NCBI GenBank assembly: GCA_963666275.2
Contig: CAXXOA010000001.1
Coordinates: 160,001 to 224,000, forward strand
Length of the DNA stretch: 64,000 bases
Direction of reading: 5' to 3'
Origin: Oceanispirochaeta sp.
Lineage (GTDB): Bacteria > Spirochaetota > Spirochaetia > DSM-2461
The translations under genes and the position numbers were made by a program. Every line of letters starts with the position of its first letter. Position 1 is the first letter of the stretch. Under the pieces are notes generated by a model. The model was given only the letters and a program-made list of their open reading frames with translations, was not told the origin of the DNA and did no database searches. Positions 3,955-34,672 of this stretch are shown here, piece after piece.

Positions 3955-4698
3955 TCAGGCAATCAGAATCTCCACACCTGCTTTTTCCAGAAGGGTTCTG
4001 ATCTCCCCGGGAATGTCTTCGTCGGTTATAAGGCAATCCACTTCTTCCGCCCGGCAGTAACGGGAAAGGGCCACTTTGCCGAACTTGCTTGAATCGGTCA
4101 GAATATAGGTTCGGGGGCTGCGGCTAATGATTTCATGGTTGATTTCAGCCCGCATCATGTCCCGGCCTGTAAAGCCGGTTTCCGGTGTAAAACCGTCGAT
4201 TCCTATAAAGGCTTTGGAAAAATTGAGAGCATTCAGGCAGAGTTTGACAAGGTTTCCCACCATACATTCACTTTCGGGCTGATAGATACCGCCCAGGAGA
4301 ATCACCTTTCCCTCCGCTTCCTTCCCGATCTGACGGGCAATGAAGGTATTGGATGTTATAATTGTGGTTCCCGGAATCTTTGCCACTTCCTTGGCAAACA
4401 GGGCATTGATCGAACCCGATTCTATATAGATGATCTCCCCTTCCGAAACATTTTCAGCCGCTTTCCGGGCAATTTGAAGTTTTTTTTCATAGTTGATACC
4501 CATGCGGTGGGAAATATCATCGCTTTCATCCAGTACGGCCCCGCCGTGAACTCTTCTGAGAAAGCCATTATTTTCAAGCATTGTAAGATCCTGTCTCACC
4601 GTGGCCTGGGAAACCCCAAGCTGCTGAGCCAGGGCATTGACGGAGACTTTCCTTCCGTCAGACATGATGCTCAGGATCTGTTTATGTCTTTCATTCAT
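3955..4698 (-). CDS. yciT: DeoR/GlpR-family regulator, YciT-like
   Basis: VSQATVRQDL HTH; FSKAFIGIDGFTPETGFTGRDMMR matches the recalled E. coli YciT signature. Confidence 0.85.
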   Translation of the reverse strand: MNERHKQILSIMSDGRKVSVNALAQQLGVSQATVRQDLTMLENNGFLRRVHGGAVLDESDDISHRMGINYEKKLQIARKAAENVSEGEIIYIESGSINALFAKEVAKIPGTTIITSNTFIARQIGKEAEGKVILLGGIYQPESECMVGNLVKLCLNALNFSKAFIGIDGFTPETGFTGRDMMRAEINHEIISRSPRTYILTDSSKFGKVALSRYCRAEEVDCLITDEDIPGEIRTLLEKAGVEILIA

Positions 4699-4736
4699 AT
4701 TATTACTATTCCTATATTCTTTTTGTTATGTCTCTA

Positions 4737-5216
4737 TCATATCTGTATTGTCTCTTTCTGAGAAGTATTCAGGTAGTCTCTTATCACATCAACGGCAAAA
4801 TCATGATCTTCTTCATCTGTCAGGCCCGATACAGTAAGAGATCCGATGATCCCTCCGGAAGAGAGGAGGATGGGAAAGGCTCCGCCCCAGGGTCTGTACT
4901 CCGTGGGATCCAGGAAATAACTCTCCACATTCTTGCCCCTGCTTTTCATATGACGGGACACATAGAGAGAACTGTGCTGGAAATAGGCACAGATCTTCTG
5001 CTTCCCTTCAATCCAGCGGCTGTTGTCCCGGGTGGTTCCCTCAAGAAAAGCTGTAAACAGAAGCTGTCCGTTTCTATGGATCCCGATAGCTAGAGGAAGG
5101 GATTCTTCGGTTGCCTTTTCTACGGCTGATCTGCCCAGTTCCCAGGCAATGGTGTTGTTGAATTGCGGAAAAGTCAGTTCTTTCTCCTCCTGAAGGAGAG
5201 TAGGGAGGTCTTTCAT
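4737..5216 (-). CDS. UPF0303 / GlcG-HbpS-like heme-binding domain protein
   Basis: FNNTIAWELG, GGAFPI, TVSGLTDEEDH motifs. Confidence 0.8.
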   Translation of the reverse strand: MKDLPTLLQEEKELTFPQFNNTIAWELGRSAVEKATEESLPLAIGIHRNGQLLFTAFLEGTTRDNSRWIEGKQKICAYFQHSSLYVSRHMKSRGKNVESYFLDPTEYRPWGGAFPILLSSGGIIGSLTVSGLTDEEDHDFAVDVIRDYLNTSQKETIQI

Positions 5217-5236
5217 GGAAAAACCTTGTCATGCTG

Positions 5237-5269
5237 TTTCAAATGAAGAAAAATGATATTCATATGAAA
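5237..5269. promoter_or_regulatory. Paired palindromic operator (site 1 of 5), probable YciT-like DeoR site
   Basis: TTTCAAATGAAG (5237-5248) and ATTCATATGAAA (5258-5269), 21-bp spacing. Confidence 0.65.
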
Positions 5270-5289
5270 ATATTATGGAGGGAATTTTT

Positions 5290-6792
5290 CTATCTGTCAA
5301 TAAAATCTCCCAGGCCGGCCCTGCTTATATGATCACCTGCCCGGAGCCCCTGGGCGGCGATTGTCAGAGCGGGATTGACAGCTCCGGAGGTGGGAAAGAA
5401 ACTGGCATCCACCACAAACAGATTGGGATGGTCCCAGCTCCGGCCGAAAGGATCCAGCGGTGCTTCTTCGGCGGTTCTGCCGAAGCGGATGGTTCCGCAC
5501 TGATGCTGAACCGCCCGGATATCCCTTTTATCAACAAAGATCAGAGGGTATCCGGCTTTTCTCATCATCCGGGAGGCTGCTGAAATCAGCTGCCTGTGGG
5601 CTTCTGTATTCCTGTGTTCTACAGAAAGCTGAATCCGGTTGTCCTCCCTGAGGATGATTCTGTTTTCCCTTTCAGGGGGATCTTCGGTCATCAGCCAGAG
5701 ATCAATGCTTCTGGGAGCAATGACGCCGGCCAGGGATTTCAGTATTCCTCCCGATCGGGTCTTCAGCATTTCCCTCTGAATCTTTCCTCTGAGCTGGATA
5801 TTGCCCCAGCCTCTTTCATAGAAGTCATTCAGCCCCAGGGTTTTCTGAAATACAGTCGGGTTTTTTTTCAGAGGGGATAGGGCCAGCATGACCGAATTGA
5901 TATGGCTCATATAGTTCCGGCCCACCAGGTCGGTCGTATTGGCCGCCCCGGATTTATGCTTTTCATCCCGGGACCGGAGCAGGAGGGCGGCCGAATTGAC
6001 TGCCCCAGCGGACACCACTACCAGACGTGCCTTCTGATCGTATTCTTTCCCTTCATGCAGAATCCTGGCTCCCTCTATCAGGTTTTTCTTTCCGGCATAA
6101 AGGAGTTTTACCGCATAGGCCCCTGTGAGCAGTGTCAGGTTGGAGTCTGTTTTCAGATACAGCGGCCGGAGGAACCGGTTCTCTCCATCCCCTTTGGCCC
6201 GTACCATGCAGGGAAATCCGTCGCAGGGACTGCCCTTTCTGCACTTTCCCCCGGGCCCCTGATCAATGGCGATGGGGAGATGAAAAGGGTGAAGCCCCTG
6301 TTTTTCAAGATCTACCGCCAGATCGGTTATAACCTGTTCATGCGAAGCGGCGGTGAAAGGGTATTCCTTCCGGGGCGGCTCTGTGGGATCCTCTCCGGAT
6401 TTTCCCCTGACCCCCAGGAGTTCTTCGGCTTTTTCATACCAGGGGGCGAAGTCGCTGTAGTTCACAGGCCAGTTTCTGAAGTCTGATTCCCGCAGCCTGA
6501 AGGCGGTTCCTCCGAAGAACTTGCTGTTTCCCCCCACGTTGTAGTACATCCTGGGCGTAAAGGACTGCCCCTGCCTGTCGATCCAGATCTCCCGGCTGGC
6601 ATAGCGTCTGTTCTCTACAATCTCATGAACATCCCAGTTCTCTTTTTCCTGCTTTATGAAATCTCCCCGTTCGACCATCAGGACTGAGAGTCCCGAATCC
6701 TTCAGGGCGTAGGCGAGAGCACTTCCGCCCATGCCGGAACCTATGATCAGAACGTCGTAGGTGAAATTTTTATTCCAAATATTTGAATTCAT
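5290..6792 (-). CDS. GMC-family FAD oxidoreductase (sugar/glycoside dehydrogenase-like)
   Basis: DVLIIGSGMGG FAD motif, VGGNSKF, CRKGSPCDGFPC Cys motif, HQCGT, NLFVVDASFFPTSGAVNPALT; start at ATG 6792. Confidence 0.88.
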   Translation of the reverse strand: MNSNIWNKNFTYDVLIIGSGMGGSALAYALKDSGLSVLMVERGDFIKQEKENWDVHEIVENRRYASREIWIDRQGQSFTPRMYYNVGGNSKFFGGTAFRLRESDFRNWPVNYSDFAPWYEKAEELLGVRGKSGEDPTEPPRKEYPFTAASHEQVITDLAVDLEKQGLHPFHLPIAIDQGPGGKCRKGSPCDGFPCMVRAKGDGENRFLRPLYLKTDSNLTLLTGAYAVKLLYAGKKNLIEGARILHEGKEYDQKARLVVVSAGAVNSAALLLRSRDEKHKSGAANTTDLVGRNYMSHINSVMLALSPLKKNPTVFQKTLGLNDFYERGWGNIQLRGKIQREMLKTRSGGILKSLAGVIAPRSIDLWLMTEDPPERENRIILREDNRIQLSVEHRNTEAHRQLISAASRMMRKAGYPLIFVDKRDIRAVQHQCGTIRFGRTAEEAPLDPFGRSWDHPNLFVVDASFFPTSGAVNPALTIAAQGLRAGDHISRAGLGDFIDR

Positions 6793-6812
6793 AAGTATAA
6801 TTGTATTATATT

Positions 6813-6846
6813 GTCCATATGAAATCAAAAAAACTTTCGAATGAAA
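6813..6846. promoter_or_regulatory. Paired palindromic operator (site 2 of 5) between divergent GMC and RPE-like genes
   Basis: GTCCATATGAAA (6813-6824) and TTTCGAATGAAA (6835-6846), 22-bp spacing. Confidence 0.65.
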
Positions 6847-6862: not shown

Positions 6863-7639
6863 ATGGATAAAAGAAGTATAGGTAATGTTACTGATAAAGT
6901 AAAAATCGCTGCCGGGCTTTTCTGGGCGGATTACGGAAATCTGGCGGGGACTGTTAAGGAACTGGAAGAAGCCGGGGCGGACTGGATCCATCTGGAAATG
7001 CGGGACGGACAGTATATGAACTTCAATGCTCCCAGGGGGGGGCTGGATATCCTTATGGGGATCCGTCCCCATACGTCTCTGGAAATTGAGGTGCAGCTGC
7101 AGATGGTCAGGCCGACTTTCGACCTTTACAGGCAATTGAAAGAGGCGGGGGCCGATCTGATCACGATTCCTCTGGAAACGGCTATGGAAAACACAATGCA
7201 GGATATCACCTTTATCAAAGATGCTCTGGGGCTGAAAGCGGGCGTCTGGGGCTGGCAGGGTATGCCTCTGAATTTTTTCTATCAGTACATCCCTTTTGTG
7301 GATATTATTGAATACGAGAGCCGGGCCCGGTTCTGGGTGGATGAAAAGGGAAAGACTCCCCATCTGATCGATCCCATCATGGTGGAAAGCATCGGGGAAC
7401 TGAAAGAGATGATCCGGAAAGCCGGAAGGGAAGGGGAGGTGGACCTGATGGAAGACGGGGGGATCAACGCAAAGAATTCCGCCCCCTTCGCCAGGGCCGG
7501 AATGACTGTGGGGGAGTACTCTTCGGCTCTGCTGAAAGGACCTGACGGTGAAGGTCCGGGAAACCGCTATGTTCCGGGATCCGGCAGGATCACTAGAGCC
7601 GTAAAAGAACTGCGGTCCGCACTGGACCGGGCTGTCTGA
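6863..7639 (+). CDS. Ribulose-phosphate 3-epimerase-family (TIM barrel) protein, divergent active site
   Basis: ADYGNL...GADWIHLEMRDGQY and MEDGGIN match the RPE fold; the HxD and DxH motifs are altered. Confidence 0.75.
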   Translation: MDKRSIGNVTDKVKIAAGLFWADYGNLAGTVKELEEAGADWIHLEMRDGQYMNFNAPRGGLDILMGIRPHTSLEIEVQLQMVRPTFDLYRQLKEAGADLITIPLETAMENTMQDITFIKDALGLKAGVWGWQGMPLNFFYQYIPFVDIIEYESRARFWVDEKGKTPHLIDPIMVESIGELKEMIRKAGREGEVDLMEDGGINAKNSAPFARAGMTVGEYSSALLKGPDGEGPGNRYVPGSGRITRAVKELRSALDRAV

Positions 7640-7694: not shown

Positions 7695-8828
7695 ATGGAT
7701 AAAATCGGCGTAGCTATGGCAGGTTTCGGAGGAATCGGCAGAATCCATCTGCTGGCGTACAGGGAGATTCCTCACTTCTATCCGGGAAAGCTTCCGGAAA
7801 TACGGATGACCGGAGTTCTCAGGTCTGGAAAAAGCGCTTCGGTAGAAACAGCCCGGGAAAACGGGTTTGACAGAGGCTACGGCAGTTTCCGGGAAATCCT
7901 GGAGGATCCCGAAGTGGACGTGATTGATCTTGTCACTCCCAACTATCTCCATAAGGATCAGATTATAGCCGCTCTTGAAGGGGGTAAGCACATTCTCTGC
8001 GAAAAACCCCTGGCCCTGAACGCCGCCGAAACGGATGAAATCCTCAGGGCCGCGGAAAAATCCCGGGGAAAAATCGGGATGATTTTCAATTACCGCTTTG
8101 TTCCGGCCATTATGAAAGCCCGGGAACTCATTGACCAGGGCCGTCTGGGAGAGGTCTACTCCTTCCGGGGAGAGTATTTTCATACAGGTTATCAGGACCC
8201 CTCCCGTCCATACAGCTGGCGGATGGATTTTGACAGGTCCGGCGGAGGGGCTCTGGCGGATCTGGGCGTCCATGTTCTGGATCTGCTGAGCTATCTTCTG
8301 GGGGACTTCAAAAGTGTCAGAGCCGATCTGGAAATCTACATAAAAGAGCGGCCCGTCCCGGGACGTGAAGGCGGGATGGCCTCTGTTTCTGTGGACGATG
8401 CGGCCTGGCTTCAGTGCCGGCTGACAGAGGGGGGCCGGGGAAGCGTGGAAGTCTCCCGTTTTGCCACGGGGACTCTGGATGATCTGAATATAACGGTTTA
8501 TGGCAGCAGGGGGTCTTTTCAGTTCCGTCTGATGGATCCGGGCTTTCTCTACTGGTTCGATCAGGACCGGAAGGAGGAGGGGTGGAAACGGCTGGAAACC
8601 CTGCAGCACTACCCGGAGGCGAAAATTCCCAATCCCCGGTCAGTGATCGGCTGGAACCGTTTCCATGCGGAGAACCAGTACAGATTTCTCAAATCAGTTG
8701 TAGAGGGAACTCCCTTCTCCCCGGGAGTGGAAGAGGGAGCCCGGGCCCAGTATGTCCTTGATGCGGCCTACCGGAGTGCTCTTTCGGGCAGGGAGGAGGA
8801 GGTTCAGCAGATCTCTTCTGCCTCGTAG
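7695..8828 (+). CDS. Gfo/Idh/MocA-family NAD(P)-dependent sugar oxidoreductase
   Basis: GFGGIG, TPNYLH, GKHILCEKPLA, GGGALADLGVHVLD. Confidence 0.92.
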   Translation: MDKIGVAMAGFGGIGRIHLLAYREIPHFYPGKLPEIRMTGVLRSGKSASVETARENGFDRGYGSFREILEDPEVDVIDLVTPNYLHKDQIIAALEGGKHILCEKPLALNAAETDEILRAAEKSRGKIGMIFNYRFVPAIMKARELIDQGRLGEVYSFRGEYFHTGYQDPSRPYSWRMDFDRSGGGALADLGVHVLDLLSYLLGDFKSVRADLEIYIKERPVPGREGGMASVSVDDAAWLQCRLTEGGRGSVEVSRFATGTLDDLNITVYGSRGSFQFRLMDPGFLYWFDQDRKEEGWKRLETLQHYPEAKIPNPRSVIGWNRFHAENQYRFLKSVVEGTPFSPGVEEGARAQYVLDAAYRSALSGREEEVQQISSAS

Positions 8829-9112
8829 TCAAAGACCAGAACCCCTTCAAGAAGGGGACCGGCATAGGCAGAAAACGCTTTATGGTCCGGATGGACAAGG
8901 TAGGAATCCCTCTCTTTTGTTCCGGCGAAAGAGAGGACATAACCGTCGGTGAACCCCAGGTTCAGATTCTCGGGGCTTATGTTCACACCCCACTCAAATC
9001 CGAGTATTTCCGGTATCATCCCCTTAAGGGCGGCAAATCTTGCATGCAGCTCCTCCAGTTTCTCTTTTTCCGCATTCTCCGAATAGTTGAATAGAACAAT
9101 ATGACGTATCAC
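8804..9112 (-). CDS. Dabb (stress-responsive alpha/beta barrel) protein
   Basis: MIRHIVLF, YLVHPDH, LVFDY. Confidence 0.85.
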   Translation of the reverse strand: MIRHIVLFNYSENAEKEKLEELHARFAALKGMIPEILGFEWGVNISPENLNLGFTDGYVLSFAGTKERDSYLVHPDHKAFSAYAGPLLEGVLVFDYEAEEIC

Positions 9113-9192: not shown

Positions 9193-9225
9193 CTTCATAT
9201 GAAAAATAAAAGTTTACAAGTGAAA
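9193..9225. promoter_or_regulatory. Paired palindromic operator (site 3 of 5) upstream of the sugar ABC operon
   Basis: CTTCATATGAAA (9193-9204) and TTACAAGTGAAA (9214-9225), 21-bp spacing. Confidence 0.6.
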
Positions 9226-9298: not shown

Positions 9299-10588
9299 AT
9301 GAAAAAGGTTTCTATCAGTCTGTTGGCAGTGCTGCTTATGTCATCTCTGATGCTTTTTGCAGGCGGTCAGAAAGAGGGCGGAGCCGGCGAAGAAGCTATT
9401 GACGGAAGCAATGTAGAAGTTCTGCACTGGTGGACCTCAGGCAGCGAAGCGGCTGCTTTGAATGTATTGAAAGAAGATCTTGAGAAAAAAGGAATCACCT
9501 GGACCGATTCTCCCGTAGCCGGAGGCGGTGGAGATCAGGCAATGACAGTTCTTCGTTCCAGAGCGACAGCAGGGAATCCTCCCGTCGCTGTTCAGATGCT
9601 GGGATTTGATATTATCGACTGGGCCGAGCTGGGGTTCCTGGCTGACCTGAATGATGTGGCTAAAGAAGAAAACTGGGATGCCGTTGTTCCTGACGCTCTC
9701 AAATTTTTCTCCAAATACAATGGTGTTTGGGTTGCCGCTCCTGTGAATGTTCACTCTACCAACTGGGTATGGGCCAACAAAGAGATCATGGACAGTCTGA
9801 ATATTTCCGAACCCAAAAACTGGGACGAATTTATGGCTGCCATGGAAAAAGTAAAAGCCGCCGGATACACAGCCCTGGCTCATGGCGGACAGGCCTGGCA
9901 GGACGGAACCATGTTCGACGGTGTTGTTGTTTCTACAGGCGGACCTGAATTCTACAAGAAAACCATGATTGATCTGGACGATGCGGCGCTTCGTTCCGAC
10001 ACAATGGTGGAAGTTTTCAGCAGAATGCGTCAGCTGAGATCCTTTGTGGATGACAACTTCAGCGGAAGGGACTGGAACCTGGCTTCTGCCATGGTTATCG
10101 AAGGAAAGGCCGCTTTCCAGATTATGGGTGACTGGGCAAAAGGCGAGTTTAAAAACGCCGGTCTGGAACCGGGAAAAGACTTCTATTTCTTCCGTGTCCC
10201 CGGATCACAGGGCACTGTTACTTTCAACTCCGACCAGTTTGTTATGTTCGATGTGGATCCTGCCTACCAGGATGCCCAGAAAGAGCTTGCAAAATCCATT
10301 ATGCAGCCCAGTTTTCAGATTGCCTTCAACCTGGTTAAGGGATCTGTTCCCGCCAGAACCGACATCTCTGATGCGGAGTTTGATGCGGCCGGTAAAAAAG
10401 GTATGAAAGACCTGGCTGAAGCCTCCAGAAACGGTACCCTTTTCGGTTCCATGGCTCACGGACACGCTGTCCCCGCCGGACTGAAACAGGCTATGTTTGA
10501 TGTCATTACCGCTCATTTCAATGATGAATCCTACAGCGACGAACAGGCCGCCCAGGATTTGGCAGATGCGGTTGCTGCTGCAAAATAA
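9299..10588 (+). CDS. CUT1 sugar ABC transporter substrate-binding protein (glucose/mannose GtsA-like)
   Basis: [36 protein letters not shown]; signal peptide; AGGAGG RBS. Confidence 0.9.
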
Positions 10589-10612
10589 TAGTACTATAAT
10601 TTAATGAATCCC

Positions 10613-10650
10613 ACCGGCCGTTTTGAAGCTTCTTTTTTGAAACGGCCGGT
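10613..10650 (+). other. Intergenic stem-loop after the binding-protein gene (mRNA stabiliser or partial terminator)
   Basis: ACCGGCCGTTT (10613-10623) and AAACGGCCGGT (10640-10650) form an inverted repeat. Confidence 0.6.
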
Positions 10651-10680
10651 TCATCACTTTTAAAAAAAAGGAACAAAAAT

Positions 10681-11565
10681 ATGACACCACACAGCAAGTG
10701 GCGATTGACGAAGGATGATGTAACCGCCCGGTTCGTGCTGATGCCGACCCTTATTCTTACCTTTGTATTTGTTTATGCCTTCATCATTTTTACCATCTAT
10801 ATTTCATTTACCAACTCACGTTTAATGCCCTCTTACGACTGGGTAGGATTTCAGAATTATGTTAAAATGTTCAAACTTCCCCACTGGCATACAGCTCTGA
10901 AGAATTTTGCGATCTTCAGTGTTCTCTATATAACTATCTCCACCTTTCTGGGGCTTTTCCTGGCCATCCTGGTGGACTGGAGCAAACTGGGGGAACGGCT
11001 GTTCCGCCCTATCTACCTTTATCCCATGGCTATCTCCTTTATCGTTACCGGTACCGCATGGAAGTGGTTCCTGGATCCCGGAATCGGTCTGGAACAGATC
11101 ATGCATACCTGGGGTTTTACAAACTTTACATTCAACTGGATAAAAAGTGCCGATTATGCCATCTATACCATTGTGATCGCCGCGGTCTGGCAGGTGACCG
11201 GTTATGTGATGACCATGTTCCTGGCGGGGCTGAGGGCTGTCAATCATGCCACCATAGAGTCGGCGGTTGTCGACGGTGCGGGTATGTGGACACTTTACCG
11301 GAGGATTATCATCCCTCAGCTGGGGCCTTCTTTCACATCAGTCTTTGTTATTCTGGGGCATATGGCGATCAAGTCCTATGACCTTGTCATTGCATTGACC
11401 AACGGAGGGCCGGGCAGGGCGACAGAGCTGCCGTCAACATTCATGTACTCCTATACTTTTACACGAAATCAGATGGGTGTCGGAGCCGGTTCTGCAGTAT
11501 TTATGCTGGTACTCTTCGCCATCATTATCATTCCCTACATCAGAACCATAGTGAAGGATCAGTAA
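10681..11565 (+). CDS. Sugar ABC transporter permease
   Basis: Hydrophobic; EAA-loop variant IESAVVDGA; GGPGRATELP. Confidence 0.92.
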   Translation: MTPHSKWRLTKDDVTARFVLMPTLILTFVFVYAFIIFTIYISFTNSRLMPSYDWVGFQNYVKMFKLPHWHTALKNFAIFSVLYITISTFLGLFLAILVDWSKLGERLFRPIYLYPMAISFIVTGTAWKWFLDPGIGLEQIMHTWGFTNFTFNWIKSADYAIYTIVIAAVWQVTGYVMTMFLAGLRAVNHATIESAVVDGAGMWTLYRRIIIPQLGPSFTSVFVILGHMAIKSYDLVIALTNGGPGRATELPSTFMYSYTFTRNQMGVGAGSAVFMLVLFAIIIIPYIRTIVKDQ

Positions 11566-11567
11566 CG

Positions 11568-14375: not shown

Positions 14376-14401
14376 TCAGATCTCTCCTGTTTATTTTCCG
14401 G

Positions 14402-15433: not shown

Positions 15434-15485
15434 GATGTTTCCTTGATTACTACTGTATCTTTCTTTTTCAAGTATGACAAGAAAA

Positions 15486-15627
15486 ACTAAACATTACTAA
15501 AATAAACTAAATAATAAACGGATTTTATCTGATTTAAAATAGGTTATTTCGCGCTAACCCTACATGTATGGTGAAATTTACTAAAAAATACTAAATAAAT
15601 TGACAGCTGTTCAATCGATGTTACAAT
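15486..15627 (+). promoter_or_regulatory. 10-bp-phased ACTAAA repeats and sigma70 promoter of the ABC operon
   Basis: ACTAAA at 15486, 15496, 15506, 15580 and 15590; TTGACA 15600-15605; TG-n-TACAAT 15619-15627. Confidence 0.6.
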
Positions 15628-15659
15628 AAAATTAATCACCACAAAAAAAGGAGTTTCTT

Positions 15660-16685: not shown

Positions 16686-16703
16686 TTATTGCAGACATCA
16701 TCG

Positions 16704-16733: not shown

Positions 16734-16749
16734 AAAAAGGAAGGTCTCT

Positions 16750-23092: not shown

Positions 23093-23125
23093 TTTCATAT
23101 GATAATATATAATTATCATATGAAG
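23093..23125. promoter_or_regulatory. Paired palindromic operator (site 4 of 5) between RmlD-like and pflD-like genes
   Basis: TTTCATATGATA (23093-23104) and TATCATATGAAG (23114-23125), 21-bp spacing. Confidence 0.7.
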
Positions 23126-26448: not shown

Positions 26449-28224
26449 TCAGATGTTGGCTTCCTGAACCAGGCAGTTTCGTCCGGAGCCTTTGGCTTTA
26501 TACAGAATGGTATCGCAGATCCTGAACAGGTCTTTATTCAGGGTCTCTTTATCACAGAATGTGGTGTAGACTCCCAGGCTGATTGTCAGATAGTCCGAAA
26601 CAGCGGACGTTTTATGGGGGATCATCAGGTCCTCCACTTCCCGGCGCAGTTTTTCTGCAATGATTCCCGCTCCTTCCGGCGGTGTTTCAGACAGCAGGCA
26701 GGTAAACTCCTCTCCGCCGTAACGGGCCGCCAGATCATCGGGTCTGCGTACGATCCTTTTTATAAGCTGCCCCAGCGTCTGAAGGACTTCGTCTCCCTGT
26801 ACGTGTCCGTAGGAATCATTGTAGTTTTTAAAGAAATCCACATCCATCAGAATCAGCGAAAGAGGGTTCCCCGAACGGGAATGGCGTTTTATCTCCATCC
26901 TCAGTTTTTCATCCAGATAGCGCCGATTGGCCAGTTTTGTCAGGGGATCCTGTCTGGTTAAGGTGACAAGCTCCGTGTTGATGGACTCTATCTCTCTTGT
27001 GGAAGTTTCCACAAGCCGGTGGAGCACCCGCATGGTTCTGAACTGTCTGGATTCCTCGGGATAAGTTCTTGATACTTCCGGTGCGTCATGGGCTGTTCCC
27101 TCCAGGTGGCTCTCTGAAAGAGACAGGGCTGTCTGGGTCTGACTGAACATGTAGGTCTGGGAATTTTCATGGCTGTAGTACTCTCCATAGCAGTAGCTTC
27201 CCGCGGAATGGGAAATCTGTTTCACAGCAGAAAGATCCATGGATATATCCGCCCCGAGGACCCATTTTCTGGAGACGCAGGCATAGAGAAAAATGGCCTG
27301 TGGTTGGAGGGCTCTGATCTCGTGACGGAGTTTTTCCGCCCCCAGGCTGATTAATCCGGCATTGCAGTAGCAGAACTGAACCTTTTCGCCCTTCTCGAAA
27401 TTGTGAATATAATCAAAGGTCCCGTCGGGATGGATTTTCATGGGATGAATGGCCACATTCAGCCCTTTCCTGTCTATCATCAGGGGAAACTCCGCTCCGG
27501 CCAGGGGGAGATCCCGGGCAATTTCCTCGCCCAGGTAGTAGCTGTAAAGATCATAGGGCGTCTGGTTTTCGATGGATATGACATGGTTTCCTTCGGCTTC
27601 GGTTATTTCCAGTTTTTTCCCGATAGGAATCCAGCTGAGATTGAAGGCATGCCCCGCTCTGAGATCAGACCCGCTCAGGGAGGCTCCTACGGCTCCGTGT
27701 TCGGTAATCTGCTCCCTGGTAAAGACGAAAGTCCTCTGGCCTATGCCGTTATCCCCCGCCTGACCTCCGGCAATCAGCACATCTCCCAGGCTGTCTTTTA
27801 TACCGGCCAGGAGGGGCTCGCTGTTGATGAACTTTTCCTCTTTCAGTCCGCAGCCGAAGAGTATTACCGCCTTTATCCTGTCCTGAGAGAGTTCCTTCCC
27901 CATCAGGGTTCCTGCCGCATAAAGGTTGTCATTCTGATCCACAAGATATGTTTTCACTCTGGTTGTATCAAAAAAACAGAAGCTCAGGACAATGCTGTTC
28001 TCCGAAAATCGTCCCTCCAGGATCTCTCCTGCGGTACTCATACCCATTACAGGAGCTAGGGGAAAGATTTCATTCAGCTCCTGCTGGAGTTTTCTTATTA
28101 TTTTCTGGTTGAGAACACCGGAAAAAACCTGAATCAGAGTATTTTCAGCCTTCCAGCCGGGGTATTGCTCTCTTACTTCCCGGATATTGGCTTTTGTCCT
28201 GTATACGATATTCCGGCATACCAT
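26449..28224 (-). CDS. FIST-domain diguanylate cyclase
   Basis: GMSTAGEI, AGGQAGDNG, CVSRK, CYGEY (FIST/FIST_C); DPLTKLANRR, RPDD I-site, RYGGEEF. Confidence 0.9.
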   Translation of the reverse strand: MVCRNIVYRTKANIREVREQYPGWKAENTLIQVFSGVLNQKIIRKLQQELNEIFPLAPVMGMSTAGEILEGRFSENSIVLSFCFFDTTRVKTYLVDQNDNLYAAGTLMGKELSQDRIKAVILFGCGLKEEKFINSEPLLAGIKDSLGDVLIAGGQAGDNGIGQRTFVFTREQITEHGAVGASLSGSDLRAGHAFNLSWIPIGKKLEITEAEGNHVISIENQTPYDLYSYYLGEEIARDLPLAGAEFPLMIDRKGLNVAIHPMKIHPDGTFDYIHNFEKGEKVQFCYCNAGLISLGAEKLRHEIRALQPQAIFLYACVSRKWVLGADISMDLSAVKQISHSAGSYCYGEYYSHENSQTYMFSQTQTALSLSESHLEGTAHDAPEVSRTYPEESRQFRTMRVLHRLVETSTREIESINTELVTLTRQDPLTKLANRRYLDEKLRMEIKRHSRSGNPLSLILMDVDFFKNYNDSYGHVQGDEVLQTLGQLIKRIVRRPDDLAARYGGEEFTCLLSETPPEGAGIIAEKLRREVEDLMIPHKTSAVSDYLTISLGVYTTFCDKETLNKDLFRICDTILYKAKGSGRNCLVQEANI

Positions 28225-28378
28225 TTTCTGTTTATTACCTCACTACTAAGTGTAGAGTATGCCTGAGGGGATTGCCATGTCCGGAAAGGATAACTCAGGG
28301 GACTGAACAGCTTTTTTCCTTTTTCAGATTTCACCTCATACGTTTTTCCACTATAATCAAATTTTACAGGAGGCTGGA

Positions 28379-29191
28379 ATGCTCGATTTTATGAAACAGT
28401 TCGGACCTGTTACACAGGCTCTTATTGCAACTCTCTTTACCTGGGGTGTGACTGCTCTGGGTGCCGCCATGGTCTTTTTCTTTAAGACAATAAAAAAATC
28501 TGTTCTGGACACTATGCTGGGATTTGCTGCCGGTGTGATGATCGCAGCCAGTTTCTGGTCACTCCTGGCTCCCTCAATCGACCTTGCCGAAAGTATGGGG
28601 ATTATCCCCTGGGTCCCTGCCGTGGTGGGATTCCTTCTGGGCGGGGTCTTTCTGAGGCTGGTAGACCGGGTGCTTCCCCATCTTCATCTGGGAGAACCCA
28701 TTGAGAATGCAGAAGGCGTACACACCACCTGGAGAAAGAGCCTCCTTCTGGTTCTGGCGATTACACTGCATAATATTCCCGAAGGTCTGGCCGTGGGAGT
28801 GGCATTCGGTGCCGTCGCGGCGGGTATTCCCTCGGCGTCCCTGGCGGGGGCTGTTGCCCTGGCTCTGGGTATCGGTATTCAGAATTTCCCCGAAGGCGCA
28901 GCCGTATCGGTTCCTCTCAGAAGGGAGGGGCTTTCCCGGACCAAATCCTTTGTGTACGGTCAGTTTTCCGGTATGGTCGAGCCTATTGCGGGTGTTCTGG
29001 GAGCCGCCATGGTACTTGTCATGAGACCGATCCTTCCCTATGCCCTCTCTTTTGCCGCGGGGGCCATGATCTTTGTCGTGGTGGAAGAGGCTATCCCCGA
29101 ATCACAGAACTCGGGAAATACCCATGTGGCGACCCTGGGTGCCATGCTGGGGTTTGCCGTTATGATGACACTGGATGTGGCCCTGGGGTAA
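28379..29191 (+). CDS. zupT: ZIP-family metal transporter (ZupT/GufA)
   Basis: [21 protein letters not shown], multiple TM helices. Confidence 0.9.
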
Positions 29192-29197
29192 GTGCTC

Positions 29198-29815
29198 TTA
29201 TACCTTAATTAAAAGATATACTCCCAGACAGGCAAATACCGGGGAAGCAAAATATTTCTGTAAATGTGTTTTTTTTCCTCTTTTCAATGCTTTGACAATC
29301 TTTTCAGAAAGAGTTGCATAAAGCAGATCAAATAGAAATCCTGTTAGTACAAGAATTAAACCCAGAAGGAAAAACTGGTGAATCAGTGGTATTGACTGGG
29401 AGTAGAGAAACTGGGGCAAAAGAATGCTGCAGAATATTAAAGCTTTTGGATTCAGAATGTTGGTAATGAAGCCATGAAAAATGAATCTTTCTTTTTGGGA
29501 TTCAATTGTGGTTTCAGACTTCTCAAGACGGGCACTTATAGAAAATTGATAAGCCATCCAGAAGAGATACAGAGCTCCTGCTATTCTCACAAAATTATAT
29601 AAGACTGAAACACGGTCAAAGAGGGTCGCCATCCCAAGTCCCGAAGCGAAAACATGAATGAAACGGGCACAGCCAATTCCTATGGCAGTGGATATCCCAG
29701 GTCCTCTACCTCTTTCAGATGAAACTGTCATTACAAGGACCATATCCGGTCCCGGTGTAAGATAGGCTGTAATTAAAGCGGTAAGAAAAAGAAAAAGGGA
29801 CTTCCATTCGATCAT
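29198..29815 (-). CDS. LysE/RhtB-family amino acid exporter
   Basis: TPGPDM, GALYLFWM, NILNPKA. Confidence 0.9.
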   Translation of the reverse strand: MIEWKSLFLFLTALITAYLTPGPDMVLVMTVSSERGRGPGISTAIGIGCARFIHVFASGLGMATLFDRVSVLYNFVRIAGALYLFWMAYQFSISARLEKSETTIESQKERFIFHGFITNILNPKALIFCSILLPQFLYSQSIPLIHQFFLLGLILVLTGFLFDLLYATLSEKIVKALKRGKKTHLQKYFASPVFACLGVYLLIKV

Positions 29816-29949
29816 TTTATTTTTTTCACTCCATTCCAGAAACTAATCAAATTATAGCTGTCCTGGAAAGAAATATCCTTGCTATCTTTTCTTCTGGAGT
29901 TTAAAGTTTGAGAAGAAAACACTAACAAATACATAATATGGAGAAGAAT

Positions 29950-30435
29950 ATGCCACAAGAATCTGTTGATGAGGTTGATGTGACTCTTTTGAGATTTCTC
30001 CAGGAAAATGGGAGGGCTTCTAATGTTCAGATTGCAGACCATCTGAACTTAAGTGAAACTCCAAGTTGGAGACGATTGAAAAGACTTGAAACGGAAAAAA
30101 TTATAGAAGGATATCATGCCACCTTGAACAGGGAGAAACTGGGATTTGATATTCTTGCTTTTGTACAGATCATGTTTTCTGTACACACAGACGATACACC
30201 CAGCCGGTTTGAGGACGCTGTCCAGGAAATACCGGAGATTCTATCCTGTTTTAATGTTACAGGTGATGCGGACTACATGCTTGTTATAGTTGCCGAAAAT
30301 CTCAAATCCTATGAAGCCCTCCTGCGCAAAAAGATCCGCTGTCTGCCGGGAGTCAGATCCCTCAAAACAATCATTAGTATGAGAGAAGTGAAGCATTCAC
30401 AGAATTTACCTCTCTATCCAATCATCTCACCTTAA
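29950..30435 (+). CDS. Lrp/AsnC-family transcriptional regulator
   Basis: LQENGRASNVQIADHLNLSETPSWRRLKRLE; VTGDADY; alternative start at 29938. Confidence 0.9.
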   Translation: MPQESVDEVDVTLLRFLQENGRASNVQIADHLNLSETPSWRRLKRLETEKIIEGYHATLNREKLGFDILAFVQIMFSVHTDDTPSRFEDAVQEIPEILSCFNVTGDADYMLVIVAENLKSYEALLRKKIRCLPGVRSLKTIISMREVKHSQNLPLYPIISP

Positions 30436-30520: not shown

Positions 30521-32908
30521 CTAAAGCTTCTGCTCTGTCCTGGCGATGATATCGTTCTGGGTTTCCAGGGAGAGATTGGTAAAGAACGCTGAATACCCGG
30601 CCACCCTGACCACCAGGTCATGGTACTCTTCGGGCTTCTCCTGAGCTGCCAGGAGGGTTTCTTTATCCACAATGTTGTACTGGATATGCCAGCCTTTCAG
30701 ATCATCGAAGAAGCTGTGAAGCATGCCTGCCAGTTTCTCTTTTTTCTCCCGGTTTACAAGGACTGCGGGTGAGAGTTTCTGGTTCAGAAGGACTCCACCC
30801 AGGATCTTTTCTGTGGGCAGTTTGCTTATGCTTTTCATTACCGCTGTAGGGCCTTTCAGGTCCGCTCCCGAAGAGGGAGAGGCTCCTTCCGCCAGGGGCT
30901 GCCAGGCTTTTCTTCCGTCAGGAGTGGCGGGGACCACAGATCCGGCGGGAACATTCCCGGAAATGCTGGAGGTTCCCGCATAGTACCGGCATCCTATGGA
31001 ACCGCTTCCCCGGCGGATCGTATATTTGTCACTGATTTCATCTATGTAGCTGTTATAGGCCTGGACCAGAAGCTGATCCACATAATCTTCGTCGTTGCCG
31101 TATTTGGGAGCGTAGTTTTTCAGAATCAGCCGGAGTTTTTCTCCTGCCGGGCCGGCAAAGTCCGATGCCATGGCTTCCATCAGCTCCTGAGGACTGATCC
31201 TCTTCTCTTCAAAGACAAGTTTTTTAATGGCAGCCAGAGAGTCTCCCAGATTGGCGATCCCCACCTGTAGTCCCGATTCAAAATCGTATTTGCTGCCCCC
31301 CTCGTGGATGGTCAGTCCGGTCTCCAGGCAGTTGTCGGTAAAGGCGGAACAGAGAATGTCCGGGGCTTCATCCCGGAGAACAATGTCTATGGCTGCATCG
31401 ATGGCGATTCCCGCCCGGGCATAGAATCTGACCTGATCATCCCAGGCTTCCATGACCTGTGAGAAGTCGGTAAAGTCGGTGAGCTTTCCTTTCCCTTTAT
31501 GAAACTGCCGACCGCTTACAGGGTCTACCCCGTCATTGATGGCCGCCAGAAAAACCCTCATAAAATTGAGAAAGTGCTTGCCCGTACAGCGGTAACCCCA
31601 TTTGCCGGGAACAGCCGTTTCGATACAGCCGATAGCCGAATAGTCCCAGGCGTCCTCTTCTTCCACGCCCAGTTTCCTGAAGGAGGGAATTACGATGCTG
31701 TCGTTATTGAAGGCAGGCATACCGAAGCCCAGCTGAATCACATTGATGCATTCCTGCAGAAACTCCGGGCTGATTCCCGGATGAAAGCGGACGGACAGGT
31801 TGGGCTGGGTGAGCTTTGTCTCTCCCACAGATTTCAGAATGAGAAAACTCAGATCATTGACCGCATCCGAACCGTCTCTGAGCTGGCCACCGATAGTCAC
31901 ATTCTGATAAAGAGGTCCTCCCGCAGAAAAACGGGTGTGCGACCAGGAGCGGATTTTTTTGATACTCACCAGTTTGAGCCAGGTATTTTCCAGAACTTCC
32001 ATGACAAACTCTTGGTCCAGGATTCCCGCTTCTCTGTCCTTTTTGTAGAAAGGGTAGAGGTACTGATCCATCCGTCCCAGCGAGAGGGAGTGGCCGTTGC
32101 TCTCAATCTGAAGTACCACCTGGAGGAAAAAGGTGAGCTGCAGGGCCTGGTAGAAGGTGTCCGGGGCATCTCCGGCCACAAGTGCACAGTTCCGGGAAAT
32201 CAGTTCCAGCTCCTGTTTCCGGGGCGATCCTGTTTCCTTTTCCGCCGTCTGGGCTGCCAGGGCTGAATAGCGGCGTATATAGGTCTGCAGCGCTTTCACA
32301 GAGATGACCACGGCTCTGTAGAAGTGCTGTTTCCGGATACCCACTTCGCTTATCACGTCCACTTCTGCCAGTTTCTTTTCCGTTTCGGCTATATACCAGT
32401 TCAGTCCTTTGGTGAGAATCGTTCTGAAATCCACGGCTATATGGGCGTCTCCGGAGGTAAGATTGCCTTCGGCTTTGATAATGGCAGTTTCATGGATTGC
32501 CAGGAGGTCTTCCGACATAAGGGCCCGGCCTTTGTCCAGGGTGGTAATGCCGTCCCAGTAATCACAGATTTCCAGGAGTTTCTTCTTGGTTGGCTGATCC
32601 GGATAAAAGGCATCTCCCTGACGTTTTTCAAAGTCATCTATCTCCTTGCGGATCCACTCTACCGCATATTCGGGAAAGATCGGCGCCGCATAGATAGCCG
32701 AGGAGTGGTTGCCCACGATCAGATCTTCCGGTTCTATCTTCTGTGTCATCCCCTCCAGGGTATCTTTCAGGGCATAGGCCCGTTTCATGATCACAGGTTC
32801 GGCCCTGTGTTCCCTGTAGGCTCTGGTATAGAATTCAGCCCTTTCTGTGCATATGGTGGGGCGGGTTTTCAGTATCCTCTCTTTGTAGAGGGCAATCCTT
32901 TCTGTCAT
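30521..32908 (-). CDS. ybiW: Glycyl radical enzyme, YbiW-like (putative 1,5-anhydroglucitol-6-phosphate isomerase)
   Basis: RVAGYSAFF; IGCIETAV; IIKAEGNLTSGDAH, QIESNGHS, PLYQNVTIGG and YYAGTSSIS match recalled E. coli YbiW. Confidence 0.88.
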   Translation of the reverse strand: MTERIALYKERILKTRPTICTERAEFYTRAYREHRAEPVIMKRAYALKDTLEGMTQKIEPEDLIVGNHSSAIYAAPIFPEYAVEWIRKEIDDFEKRQGDAFYPDQPTKKKLLEICDYWDGITTLDKGRALMSEDLLAIHETAIIKAEGNLTSGDAHIAVDFRTILTKGLNWYIAETEKKLAEVDVISEVGIRKQHFYRAVVISVKALQTYIRRYSALAAQTAEKETGSPRKQELELISRNCALVAGDAPDTFYQALQLTFFLQVVLQIESNGHSLSLGRMDQYLYPFYKKDREAGILDQEFVMEVLENTWLKLVSIKKIRSWSHTRFSAGGPLYQNVTIGGQLRDGSDAVNDLSFLILKSVGETKLTQPNLSVRFHPGISPEFLQECINVIQLGFGMPAFNNDSIVIPSFRKLGVEEEDAWDYSAIGCIETAVPGKWGYRCTGKHFLNFMRVFLAAINDGVDPVSGRQFHKGKGKLTDFTDFSQVMEAWDDQVRFYARAGIAIDAAIDIVLRDEAPDILCSAFTDNCLETGLTIHEGGSKYDFESGLQVGIANLGDSLAAIKKLVFEEKRISPQELMEAMASDFAGPAGEKLRLILKNYAPKYGNDEDYVDQLLVQAYNSYIDEISDKYTIRRGSGSIGCRYYAGTSSISGNVPAGSVVPATPDGRKAWQPLAEGASPSSGADLKGPTAVMKSISKLPTEKILGGVLLNQKLSPAVLVNREKKEKLAGMLHSFFDDLKGWHIQYNIVDKETLLAAQEKPEEYHDLVVRVAGYSAFFTNLSLETQNDIIARTEQKL

Positions 32909-32910
32909 AT

Positions 32911-33798
32911 TCAGCCTCCGGCAGTGACGATTAAATCTCTCTCCCGGGCCATGCGCACATAAGGTTCCAGTTCTTCCGCGGGCATGGCTGTTTCGGGATG
33001 GGTATATTCTCTTTTCAGATTTCGGTATTTTCCGGCTCCCAGGGGATGGTACGCCATAAAATCCACGGCATAAACCGCATCCAGGGGCGCCAGAAAATCC
33101 AGAATGGATCCGATGGTTTCCCTGTGGTGATTGAATCCGTCAATCACGGGAATCCGGGCTCTTATGGGAGTTCCTGCGCGGGAGAGCCCTTTCAGGTTTT
33201 CCAGGATCAGATTAAGATCTCCTCCGGTGTGACGGGCGAAGATTTCAGGATCCCTGTGTTTGACATCGCAGAGAAACTCATCTGTCAGGGGTATAAGCTT
33301 TTCAATATTTTCCCAGGGAACATGAAGGCAGGTCTCTATGGACAGGTGGATCTCCTGTTTTCTGACTCCCTCCGCGATTTCCCGGCAGAGGCTGCTCTGC
33401 ATCAGAGGTTCGCCTCCCGAAAGGGTGACGCCGCCCTTTCCTGTGTAGAAAACCCGATCCTTAAGAACCTCCCGGACAATCTCATCTGCCGCTTTTTTTT
33501 CGCCTATAACCTGGAGCGCCCGGGAAGGGCAAATGTCTCTATAGGCTTCAGGATTGCCCGTCTGCCCGGGGAGGAACCTGATTTGATCATTTGCTTTCTG
33601 CATGGGGCCGTCGGGAAAGACAGCGGTACAGTCGGCGCATCCTATACAGAGAGAGCTCTCCCAGGAGAGTTCACTTGTGTATTTCTGGCTTTCCGGATTG
33701 CTGCACCAGCTGCATCTGAGGGGACAGCCTTTCAGAAATACCGTGGTTCTCAACCCGCTTCCGTCATGGAGGGAGTATCTCTGGATATTGAAAATCAC
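32911..33798 (-). CDS. ybiY: Glycyl-radical activating enzyme, YbiY-like
   Basis: IFNIQRYSLHDG, CPLRCSWC, partial ferredoxin insert, GGVTLSGGEP. Confidence 0.88.
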   Translation of the reverse strand: MIFNIQRYSLHDGSGLRTTVFLKGCPLRCSWCSNPESQKYTSELSWESSLCIGCADCTAVFPDGPMQKANDQIRFLPGQTGNPEAYRDICPSRALQVIGEKKAADEIVREVLKDRVFYTGKGGVTLSGGEPLMQSSLCREIAEGVRKQEIHLSIETCLHVPWENIEKLIPLTDEFLCDVKHRDPEIFARHTGGDLNLILENLKGLSRAGTPIRARIPVIDGFNHHRETIGSILDFLAPLDAVYAVDFMAYHPLGAGKYRNLKREYTHPETAMPAEELEPYVRMARERDLIVTAGG

Positions 33799-33834
33799 TC
33801 TTATCTTATCTCCTTGACTCTTATCCTATATATA

Positions 33835-33868
33835 TTTCGAACGAAAGTCAAAATGCTTTGTATCGAAA
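33835..33868. promoter_or_regulatory. Paired palindromic operator (site 5 of 5) between ybiY-like and DeoR genes
   Basis: TTTCGAACGAAA (33835-33846) and TTTGTATCGAAA (33857-33868), 22-bp spacing. Confidence 0.55.
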
Positions 33869-33928
33869 ATAAAGGAAATCCCTAAAAATCCCTTTTGCAA
33901 GGGATAACCCTGCTTTATACTGATACCC

Positions 33929-34672
33929 ATGATTGAACGGCATGAAAAGATTCTTCAACTGATAGAGAGGGAAAAAGATGTTTCTGTGAATGATCTATCT
34001 GAGCAGTGCGGCGTCTCTCTTGTAACAATCAGGAGCGATCTGAGGGCTCTGGAAGAACAGAACCTGCTGATTCGCACCCATGGCGGAGCGTCCCTTCCTT
34101 CGGTGGATGATATCAGCAGGCGCATGGGGATCAATCATAAGGCAAAACAGCGGATTGCCGCTGCCGCCGCCTCCCTTGTGAAAAAAGGCGACACCATTCT
34201 TCTGGAAGCGGGATCCTCCATTGCCCTTATGGCCCGGGAACTGGCTGTAAGGGAGGATATCAATGTCATTACCAACAACGCCTTTGTGGCCAGGCAGTTC
34301 AACGGTTCAAAGGGTATCAATGTGATCCTCCTGGGGGGGAAGTTCCAGCAGGAGAGCGAAACCATGGTGGGCCCTATGATTGCCGAGTATCTGAAATATT
34401 ACAACTTTTCCAAAGTGTTTCTGGGGCTGGACGGATTTACCCTGGATAAGGGCGCCATGTGCCGGGATATGGAGCGGGGAGAGGTAATGAAAGAGTTTAT
34501 CCGGCAGGGCAGGGAGATCTGCTTTCTCTCGGACTCCTCCAAGTTCGGTAAGACCGCCGTGAAAACAGTGTGCCCCCCCGAAGGTATGGATTATCTGATC
34601 ACCGACAGGGATCTGGCTGTGGATTATCGGGAGTATTTCAGGAGTGGGAATGTAGAGCTGTTGTGTCTCTGA
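33929..34672 (+). CDS. DeoR/GlpR-family regulator, second YciT-like paralog
   Basis: VSLVTIRSDL HTH; DDISRRMGIN versus DDISHRMGIN in 3955..4698; DSSKFG. Confidence 0.9.
   Translation: MIERHEKILQLIEREKDVSVNDLSEQCGVSLVTIRSDLRALEEQNLLIRTHGGASLPSVDDISRRMGINHKAKQRIAAAAASLVKKGDTILLEAGSSIALMARELAVREDINVITNNAFVARQFNGSKGINVILLGGKFQQESETMVGPMIAEYLKYYNFSKVFLGLDGFTLDKGAMCRDMERGEVMKEFIRQGREICFLSDSSKFGKTAVKTVCPPEGMDYLITDRDLAVDYREYFRSGNVELLCL
34538..34672 (+). repeat. Direct repeat copy 1 (3' end of the DeoR gene)
   Basis: 34538-34642 matches 43861-43965 with 2 mismatches in 105 bp; a colinear diverged tail runs to the stop. Confidence 0.95.

Follow-up and report, generated by a model that had tools for sequence, protein, structure and literature searches.

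A candidate PTS-independent variant of anhydroglycolysis in a spirochaete, with two glycyl radical enzymes and an operator-defined regulon

We analysed a 64,000-nucleotide stretch of the genome of Oceanispirochaeta sp. (GenBank assembly GCA_963666275.2, contig CAXXOA010000001.1, positions 160,001 to 224,000), called the window below, in which positions 3955-34672 encode two glycyl radical enzymes (GREs) together with a sugar importer, a kinase and a set of redox and epimerase-like proteins. With slightly better than even confidence, this gene set is read as a variant of anhydroglycolysis in which an ATP-binding cassette (ABC) importer and a ROK kinase serve entry, redox enzymes funnel related sugars in at that point, the rings are opened to 1-deoxyfructose-6-phosphate and this product is split by an enzyme other than fructose-6-phosphate aldolase (Fsa). 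According to the parts of PMC13450708 and PMC12441222 available to us, anhydroglycolysis was described by Ma et al. in 2024 as a pathway of phosphotransferase system (PTS), GRE, Fsa and GldA, encoded in Escherichia coli by ybiUVWY-fsaA and ptsA-fsaB-gldA / frwCB-pflDC-frwD; the reactions of YbiW and PflD, which convert 1,5-anhydroglucitol-6-phosphate (AG6P) and 1,5-anhydromannitol-6-phosphate (AM6P) to 1-deoxyfructose-6-phosphate, are taken from the same parts of PMC13450708. In the spirochaete, importer and kinase would replace the PTS, and the redox enzymes would funnel 1,5-anhydrofructose and related anhydro-hexitols into AG6P and AM6P: an RmlD-like protein would reduce 1,5-anhydrofructose-6-phosphate with NAD(P)H, a GMC-family and a Gfo/Idh/MocA oxidoreductase would make and re-reduce a 3-keto anhydro-sugar phosphate, and a protein with the fold of ribulose-phosphate 3-epimerase (RPE) would epimerise beside the ketone. 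The two GREs would open the rings of AG6P and AM6P, and the resulting 1-deoxyfructose-6-phosphate would be split by an unlinked enzyme. All accessory activities in this scheme are deduced from the genes.

Both GRE genes, which a first-pass annotation of the window had reported within 11 kb with an activase each, are intact and, with their activase genes, span 10.6 kb. The YbiW-type gene (30521-32908, minus strand; C428, E430, G771) lies next to a YbiY-like activase gene (32911-33798, minus strand), which scores above the TIGR02494 cut-off and gave the top match when E. coli YbiY was compared with the genome (41%). YbiW structures were the best structural matches of the enzyme, which is 53.6% identical to E. 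coli YbiW and retains intact Cys-x-Glu and glycyl-radical loops. A tree was computed with FastTree from 136 sequences, including 118 full-length sequences out of 150 unselected cluster representatives; in it, the enzyme and E. coli YbiW belong to a clade of four (support 0.962) that is nested among sequences with a GMS motif. The strand after the Cys loop reads RCTGKH, compared to RCTGMS in E. coli (M457K, S458H). GKH and GMS motifs were both found beside ROK, RPE-like and Gfo genes, and since E. coli-type (GMS) YbiW shares this gene context, the context requires no other YbiW substrate. The enzyme is very probably a C-O lyase on AG6P. In six relatives (G007, G009, G012, G016, G017 and G020; codes with G denote genomes, G000 being the host, and codes with L loci) no YbiY activase adjoins ybiW, so one activase may serve both GREs there, or the activase may be encoded elsewhere. 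The host genome carries three more GRE-family genes of about 800 amino acids, 25-31% identical to YbiW/PflD (G000:C3:55690-58068, C2:421997-424405 and C2:87701-89518); the last lacks an RVAGY-type glycyl motif and may encode an aminoacyl-radical or inactive homologue.

The second GRE gene (23155-25524, plus strand; C431, E433, G765) is followed by a PflC-like activase gene (25536-26435, plus strand) scoring above the TIGR02494 cut-off and encoding a radical S-adenosylmethionine and two ferredoxin motifs. The best match of this GRE was PflD, by a small margin over glycerol dehydratase (634 vs 582 bits), with 41.5% identity to E. coli PflD. It keeps the CxE and Gly loops and the PflD-specific strands QGH, SNASS, FAGFP and YTVSAH, at which glycerol and propanediol dehydratases differ. 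In the tree it belongs to a clade of its own, sister to canonical PflD (support 0.998) and called the WSD clade after its motif GWSDAA, which stands where canonical PflD has GLHDIA; 179 conserved columns are common to both groups. The proposed grouping of the two GREs with YbiW and PflD thus holds for the former, which lies inside its group, whereas the latter stands next to, not inside, the canonical clade. AM6P is the rather probable substrate of this sister enzyme.

Paired palindromic boxes of 12 bp with a period of 21-22 were found at 5237, 6813, 9193, 23093 and 33835. The first four constitute type A: 5237-5269, before the UPF0303-DeoR1 genes; 6813-6846 (spacing 22), in the GMC / RPE-like divergon; 9193-9225, before the ABC-ROK operon and the Dabb gene; and 23093-23125, in the RmlD-like / pflD divergon. 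In leave-one-out scans, these four exceeded every non-training position of the 5.27-Mb genome, which is 97% complete. For the fifth site (33835-33868, plus strand, in the ybiY / DeoR2 divergon), 87 non-training positions ranked higher, and it scores 9.3 on the type-A model. It is of a different type, B (TTTCGnnCGAAA-GTCAA...), which was present in 13/13 orthologous regions examined and reached 37.9 bits with a model built from 12 relatives, the next site of the genome reaching 16.2. A single recurring paired operator had been claimed for all units; the recurrence is real at five sites, but a single operator for all of them was rejected, the ybiY/DeoR2 site being a distinct and separately conserved type. 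A type-A model rebuilt from 31 relatives' sites also ranked the four window sites at the top of the genome (23-31 bits), although it is not fully independent, as those sites had been picked with the first model. The next scores were 15.9, at a gene that by eye resembles a methyltransferase, and 15.5, at an operon of GolD/DthD and DhaKL.

With the model trained on the window, 15 bits were reached in only 9 of the genome's 4330 upstream regions, training sites counted. Pairs of at least 15 bits precede orthologous units in G003, G004, G005, G007, G008, G009, G018 and G028 and occur in many distant loci as well; none was present in G016, G020, L192 or L196. A strict consensus pattern had no match in five relatives, being too strict to inform. 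No distal type-A regulon member rose above background genome-wide, and in this genome the regulon does not extend beyond the window. A borderline type-A-like pair at G000:C3:159772 (L004:7773) precedes genes for a CUT2 importer, a GolD/DthD dehydrogenase and DhaKL, the last of which also flank pflD in G029. The operator at 5237-5269 lies by a promoter-like site TTGACA-17-CATAAT ending at 5272, and that at 9193-9225 overlaps a -35-like hexamer at 9213.

The region is bracketed, as had been noted, by two YciT-like DeoR repressor genes, DeoR1 (3955-4698, minus strand) and DeoR2 (33929-34672, plus strand). The NCBIfam YciT model is the best model for both, with 251 and 207 bits, respectively, at a cut-off of 450; DeoR2 is 46% identical to DeoR1. 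In relatives, DeoR1 orthologues of 80-89% adjoin the module and DeoR2 is transcribed divergently from ybiY or ybiW. The presence of two operator types alongside a pair of regulators suggests one regulator per type, so that DeoR1 is likely to read type A and DeoR2 likely to read type B. In 31 kb of E. coli DNA, the two top-scoring pairs predicted by the window-trained model are one preceding ybiU, at 18.3, and one in the ybiY-fsaA divergon, at 10.4, the pflD region reaching only 2.5; the accessible part of bioRxiv 10.1101/2021.06.10.447994 gives YciT ChIP-exo peaks upstream of ybiUVWY and fsaA.

Entry without a PTS, as the first-pass annotation had it, agrees with the genome: PTS IIC, IIB and mannose-type IID (PF02378, PF02302 and PF03613, the PTS families searched) had no match, with positive controls. 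The importer described there as glucose-type is a CUT1 system (9299-12440, plus strand) with a binding protein (9299-10588) and two permeases (10681-11565 and 11568-12440), but its operon lacks an ATPase gene; four MalK-type open reading frames (ORFs) are located elsewhere in the genome. The best Protein Data Bank (PDB) matches of the binding protein were 4R2B and 5DVF, followed by the glucose-binding 2B3B. The ROK gene (12453-13415, plus strand; PF00480) follows directly, and its product is likely a 1,5-anhydrohexitol 6-kinase; its place as entry kinase is held with good confidence.

The RmlD-fold reductase (22144-23013, minus strand) belongs to a PflD-associated subfamily. It scores 144 bits against TIGR01214 (cut-off 224), its GxxGxxG motif and T101, Y126 and K130 are invariant in 10/10 aligned sequences, and its recurrent neighbours are pflD, PTS, fsa and UPF0303 genes, not rml operon genes. 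The closest solved structure is PDB 9GPI/9GSC (E 1.6e-53), which is annotated as RmlD and has the same DQIYNGN-type motif. Among the best 80 of 188 genome loci with this gene, which span Spirochaetota, Bacillota and Pseudomonadota, 52 carry a GRE within 10 kb, 42 Fsa and 35 UPF0303; canonical PflD motifs were found in 37 and WSD motifs in 11. The commonest order is pflD-pflC-rmlD-like-fsa inside a PTS cluster, and PTS clusters without pflD still keep the gene (e.g. L105, L095 and L118). Given the position between pflC and fsa and the retention in pflD-less PTS clusters, the protein may act ahead of the GRE, on the sugar phosphate as imported; its company of canonical PflD (37/80) and Fsa (42/80) would place it upstream of the aldolase step. 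Tentatively, at somewhat less than even chances, it would be the NAD(P)H reductase of 1,5-anhydrofructose-6-phosphate. The funnelling of 1,5-anhydrofructose had been proposed for the whole accessory set; we retain it as a favoured guess for the RmlD-like protein only. PMC12441222 (section 3.1) gives 1,5-anhydrofructose as the natural precursor of 1,5-anhydroglucitol (1,5-AG) and 1,5-anhydromannitol (1,5-AM). The genome has one GH31 gene, unlinked to the locus.

The three remaining enzymes are encoded around the operator at 6813-6846. The GMC-family FAD oxidoreductase (5290-6828, minus strand; PF00732/PF05199; probable start ATG at 6792) had the large subunits of glucose and fructose dehydrogenases as best PDB matches (E about 1e-27). 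The Gfo/Idh/MocA oxidoreductase (7695-8828, plus strand; best PDB match 6A3F) resembles levoglucosan dehydrogenase (LGDH) without being a member, scoring 243 bits against NF052479 at a cut-off of 650. The RPE-fold protein (6863-7639, plus strand; PF00834) forms a separate subfamily. Its AlphaFold model (predicted local distance difference test, pLDDT, 73) has the (beta/alpha)8 fold of RPE, Foldseek gave RPEs as best matches (template modelling score about 0.7) and matches in the ESM Atlas belonged to RPE-named clusters only. Its metal site is H43-E45-Q78-D198, compared to H-D-H-D of ordinary RPE; E45 is present in 198/199 and Q78 in 199/199 aligned family rows, which draw on 120 proteins and 78 locus ORFs, partly overlapping. 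Like RPE and AlsE, it has the fold, the His, Asp-Gly and DGG motifs, and it keeps the DGG and SS phosphate-site residues; unlike them, it has Asp replaced by Glu and His by Gln at two metal ligands and many invariant Trp, Glu and Arg residues. The GxGGQ loop of RPE, as in the separate ordinary RPE which the genome also encodes, is replaced by an R-F-W loop. A sample of 400 genomes from across the phylum yielded no member of this subfamily. The simplest joint role for the three would be oxidation to a 3-keto sugar, epimerisation at a neighbouring carbon and re-reduction; that the GMC and Gfo enzymes form and re-reduce such a compound, while the RPE-fold protein acts as epimerase beside the keto group, is doubtful at present.

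Orthologues of YbiW (at least 64%) were found in 14 of 60 relatives, PflD-like proteins (at least 55%) in 13 and both in 11. All ten relatives with the RmlD-like gene belong to these 11 twin-GRE genomes, and the RPE-like subfamily occurs in eight, namely seven twin-GRE genomes (split in G005) and the GRE-free G046. In G016 and G020, which represent another genus, the Gfo, RPE-like, ROK, RmlD-like, ybiW, GMC, DeoR and ABC genes stand together in changed order. Class-wide, 34 of 37 further places with YbiW were used (G526, G634 and G568 were left out); ROK is present in 27, often directly beside ybiW, a DeoR1-like gene in 24, Gfo in 13, GMC in 12, the RPE-like gene in 11 and the RmlD-like gene in 10, while Fsa, transaldolase, GldA and PTS IIC are present in none. 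The only other recurrent enzymes are a short-chain dehydrogenase/reductase (SDR) in five genomes and a 251-amino-acid protein in four. Among the best 80 of 203 metagenome loci with the RPE-like gene, 58 carry Gfo, 50 ROK, 29 GMC and 27 a GRE; if loci shorter than 8 kb are set aside, 19 of 30 carry a GRE. The expected conservation of the accessory genes near such GREs was thus borne out in many spirochaete families, through rearrangements and with the operator in relatives. Some lineages are losing parts of the module (L017:880-1705, L020:13248-13871 and L034:4733-7108): in G005 the GMC gene is truncated, the RPE-like gene split and the pflD-like gene interrupted by an in-frame stop, and G008 and G003 have no intact GMC gene at the site.

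Downstream of ring opening, the first-pass annotation had named Fsa aldolases and GldA; neither was found in this genome. No canonical Fsa was detected, and E. coli GldA had no tblastn match at E ≤ 1e-5, with ten other iron-dependent alcohol dehydrogenase genes being present. YbiU and PhyH had no match either. The sole short TAL/FSA gene (63023-63691) has N, F and L at the positions of D6, Y131 and R134, which we take to be functional residues of FsaA/B; by these residues and its unrelated tripartite ATP-independent periplasmic (TRAP) transporter context it was rejected as the aldolase. It heads a TRAP, SDR and malic-enzyme-like operon, and its substrate is likely to be another one. The genome also has two long transaldolase-family genes, unlinked to the locus. 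Fsa was not found in 13/14 YbiW-bearing relatives, and G018 alone among 16 GRE-bearing relatives has an Fsa-type match; seven of the 16, including G017 (99% complete) and G028 (93%), have no PF00923 match at all, absence from incomplete genomes being no proof, and five further genomes have PF00923 genes. Because neither Fsa nor GldA was found, 1-deoxyfructose-6-phosphate needs another exit. Acetoin-dehydrogenase chemistry turns a CH3-CO-CHOH-R compound into acetyl-CoA and an aldehyde. The RPE-like/Gfo module adjoins a zinc dehydrogenase gene in GRE-free loci and, in six loci, genes for a fused thiamine diphosphate (ThDP) E1 and/or E2; a 60% homologue is encoded in this genome in an E2-E3-E1 cluster on C2. 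The best candidate for the last step would be such an unlinked acetoin-dehydrogenase-type E1/E2/E3 complex, yielding acetyl-CoA and erythrose-4-phosphate, although this is unlikely. As a dedicated partner the fused E1 was rejected, having a non-diagnostic profile and no operator, and it stays a candidate only.

Several findings weigh against the anhydroglycolysis variant. The 28 fixed differences of the WSD clade, at columns conserved in PflD, include K152->H, L431->W, H432->S and G526->Q, some adjoining the catalytic cysteine, at an identity of only 41.5%. The RPE-like/Gfo/ROK/GMC module occurs without a GRE in 11/30 metagenome loci of at least 8 kb and in genome G046, so it is not only a GRE feeder. 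No product-splitting gene lies within the regulon, and the E1 candidate is encoded in 10/10 genus members, including four without these GREs, which makes its profile non-diagnostic. Moreover, the locus sets partly overlap and related genomes are not independent. The GRE-free versions in L226 (G046), L192, L196, L205 and L209 variously contain a CUT1 importer, a zinc dehydrogenase, a SorC-type regulator and GMC, HbpS-like and ThDP E1/E2 genes.

The fixed changes in the PflD-type enzyme, beside the catalytic Cys and on a second strand, are what would be expected if it acted on a C3/C4-epimer anhydro-hexitol phosphate, with the RPE-fold protein correcting the resulting 1-deoxy-ketose-6-phosphate to the fructose configuration. 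The usual substrates of RPE-fold enzymes are 2-keto sugar phosphates, and the retained DGG and SS residues fit this as well. The explanation is nevertheless rather improbable, since many genomes of the WSD clade have no RPE-like gene (G003, G018, G025, G028 and G029), the RPE-like gene goes with YbiW in 21/80 and with PflD in 7/80 metagenome loci (best 80 of 203), and an intact Fsa stands beside a WSD-clade PflD in L069. Alternatively, the accessory enzymes could act downstream in place of Fsa and GldA, where they would reduce, epimerise and re-oxidise 1-deoxyfructose-6-phosphate for a housekeeping aldolase. The genome without detected canonical Fsa or GldA, the 34/34 class-wide YbiW loci without Fsa, transaldolase and GldA and the seven of 16 relatives without PF00923 speak for such a role. 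It is improbable, however, as Fsa accompanies the RmlD-like gene in 42/80 loci (best 80 of 188), YbiW occurs without nearby redox or epimerase-like genes in G012, G017 and family-f26 loci, and G003 and G028 have neither Fsa nor the RPE-like gene; for the last reason, the RPE-like protein was rejected as an obligatory Fsa substitute.

We give little credence to a non-radical route by ROK, Gfo/GMC and the RPE-fold protein, in which C3 would be oxidised, the ring oxygen lost by base-catalysed beta-elimination to a 1-deoxy-2,3-diulose-6-phosphate, and this reduced and cleaved by a ThDP enzyme. The altered metal site would suit it, GRE-free loci carry the module with the zinc dehydrogenase and SorC-type regulator, six with E1 and/or E2 genes of a 2-oxoacid-dehydrogenase-type complex, and levoglucosan breakdown, as presented in the available part of PMC10066097, is a precedent for oxidation, elimination and reduction. 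On chemical grounds, however, an ether oxygen would be a poor leaving group; the copies in GRE-free loci have diverged further (ROK about 29%, Gfo about 40%) and perhaps serve another sugar, those in L192 and L196 lack the operator, and E1 is widespread. A spirochaete anhydroglycolysis without any aldolase is equally hard to credit: a ThDP complex would split the 1-deoxy-ketose phosphate to acetyl-CoA and erythrose-4-phosphate, and the Gfo/GMC and altered RPE-fold module would open the ether ring without a radical, which would explain the module in GRE-free bacteria. That the redox genes serve levoglucosan breakdown, for which the closest structural relative of Gfo (LGDH) and a PF01261 gene at 20640-21614 might speak, was rejected and is very improbable together with adjacency by chance, because Gfo lies below the LGDH cut-off (243 vs 650 bits), the PF01261 gene is part of a LacI unit, recurs in the loci of only one relative and is no conserved LgdB1 partner, and shared operators and rearranged conservation exclude chance.

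Besides the genes discussed, a UPF0303/HbpS-like gene (4737-5216, minus strand; PF03928 and NF002696 above cut-off) and a Dabb-domain gene (8804-9112, minus strand; PF07876) complete the set, and all genes of the first-pass annotation were present in their places. Its view of the whole span as one regulon needs correction, as about 13 kb (13419-21614 and 26449-30435) carry no such operator and are not conserved beside the GREs. The former interval contains a tocopherol-cyclase-like gene, a LacI gene, a rhamnose-type CUT2 importer, a mutarotase and a TIM-barrel isomerase, the latter GGDEF, ZIP, LysE and AsnC genes. These are passengers, since relatives carry other genes at these positions, such as carotenoid genes in G004 and a two-component system in G005, G007, G008 and G009. 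The interval from ROK to the RmlD-like gene is a variable insertion site; its unit at 14402-21614 (LacI, rhamnose-type CUT2 importer, RhaM-like mutarotase and PF01261 isomerase) is found at the same site in G003 and partly beside pflD in G029. In G004, the tocopherol-cyclase-like gene adjoins phytoene synthase and two desaturase-like genes (L009:1838-8204), so the copy here (13419-14375) may be left over from a carotenoid cluster. In other spirochaetes, a shikimate-dehydrogenase-like gene under a type-A operator pairs with the RmlD-like gene (L015:17592-18455, L058:9130-9993 and L078:9126-9989), often with a CUT2 importer and a gene for a 610-640-amino-acid protein after pflC; this second accessory module is absent from this genome, in which the latter gene was likewise not found.

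Compared to E. coli anhydroglycolysis, the spirochaete locus has in common the YbiW- and PflD-type GREs, each with an activase of its own and with the CxE and Gly loops, and control by YciT-like DeoR proteins with a similar, predicted operator. It differs in having ABC and ROK for the PTS, no Fsa, GldA, YbiU or YijO, a PflD sister clade, a PflD unit under a DeoR operator, two DeoRs with two operator types, and additional genes of the GMC, Gfo, RPE-fold, RmlD-fold, HbpS-like and Dabb kinds. In Vibrionaceae, Pseudovibrio, Hahella and clostridia, operons of the PTS type with the order pflD-pflC-rmlD-like-fsa contain the same RmlD-like subfamily (43-57%) and UPF0303, and often Gfo and sometimes Dabb beside pflD; in contrast, they have canonical PflD (54-75% to E. 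coli), a Frw-type PTS and intact Fsa. No description of these operons was found in the literature searched. The levoglucosan pathway (LgdA/B1/B2/C) likewise has an LGDH-like Gfo enzyme adjoining a sugar ABC importer, and LgdB1 adjoins 253/265 LgdA genes according to the accessible part of PMC10066097; unlike that pathway, the locus here has a Gfo enzyme below the LGDH cut-off, no conserved LgdB1, and a kinase and GREs. The gene set itself was not described in the titles and abstract openings searched, although the primary JACS paper or its supplement may mention such neighbours.

In the part of the review PMC12441222 available to us, no oxidative 1,5-AG route is described and the aerobic C1 hydroxylase for 1,5-AM is given as unidentified. 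A PhyH-type Fe/2-oxoglutarate dioxygenase gene occurs in 13 Vibrionaceae/Hahella loci (L072, L087, L090-L092, L094, L099-L101, L105, L110, L111 and L113; e.g. L090:13148-13915) and is a candidate for this hydroxylase, acting on 1,5-anhydromannitol or its 6-phosphate. Mannose-6-phosphate isomerase is encoded in six loci, three of them also with PhyH, and L105 keeps PTS, RmlD-like, PhyH and isomerase genes, with no pflD or fsa.

New here are a regulon delimited by its operators, the lack of Fsa and GldA across the whole genome, the link of the RmlD-like protein to PflD across phyla and the GRE-free copies of the module; both ends of the proposed pathway, import and product-splitting, are likely to be new as well. 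The anhydroglycolysis variant would be a version of this pathway spread over many spirochaete families, with neither PTS nor Fsa in the loci examined, and it offers four targets for assay: the RmlD-fold reductase, the RPE-fold subfamily with its new metal site, the PflD sister clade and the enzyme which would dispose of 1-deoxyfructose-6-phosphate. If the link to 1,5-anhydrofructose is true, it would tie the products of red-algal and fungal starch lyases to anaerobic radical catabolism.

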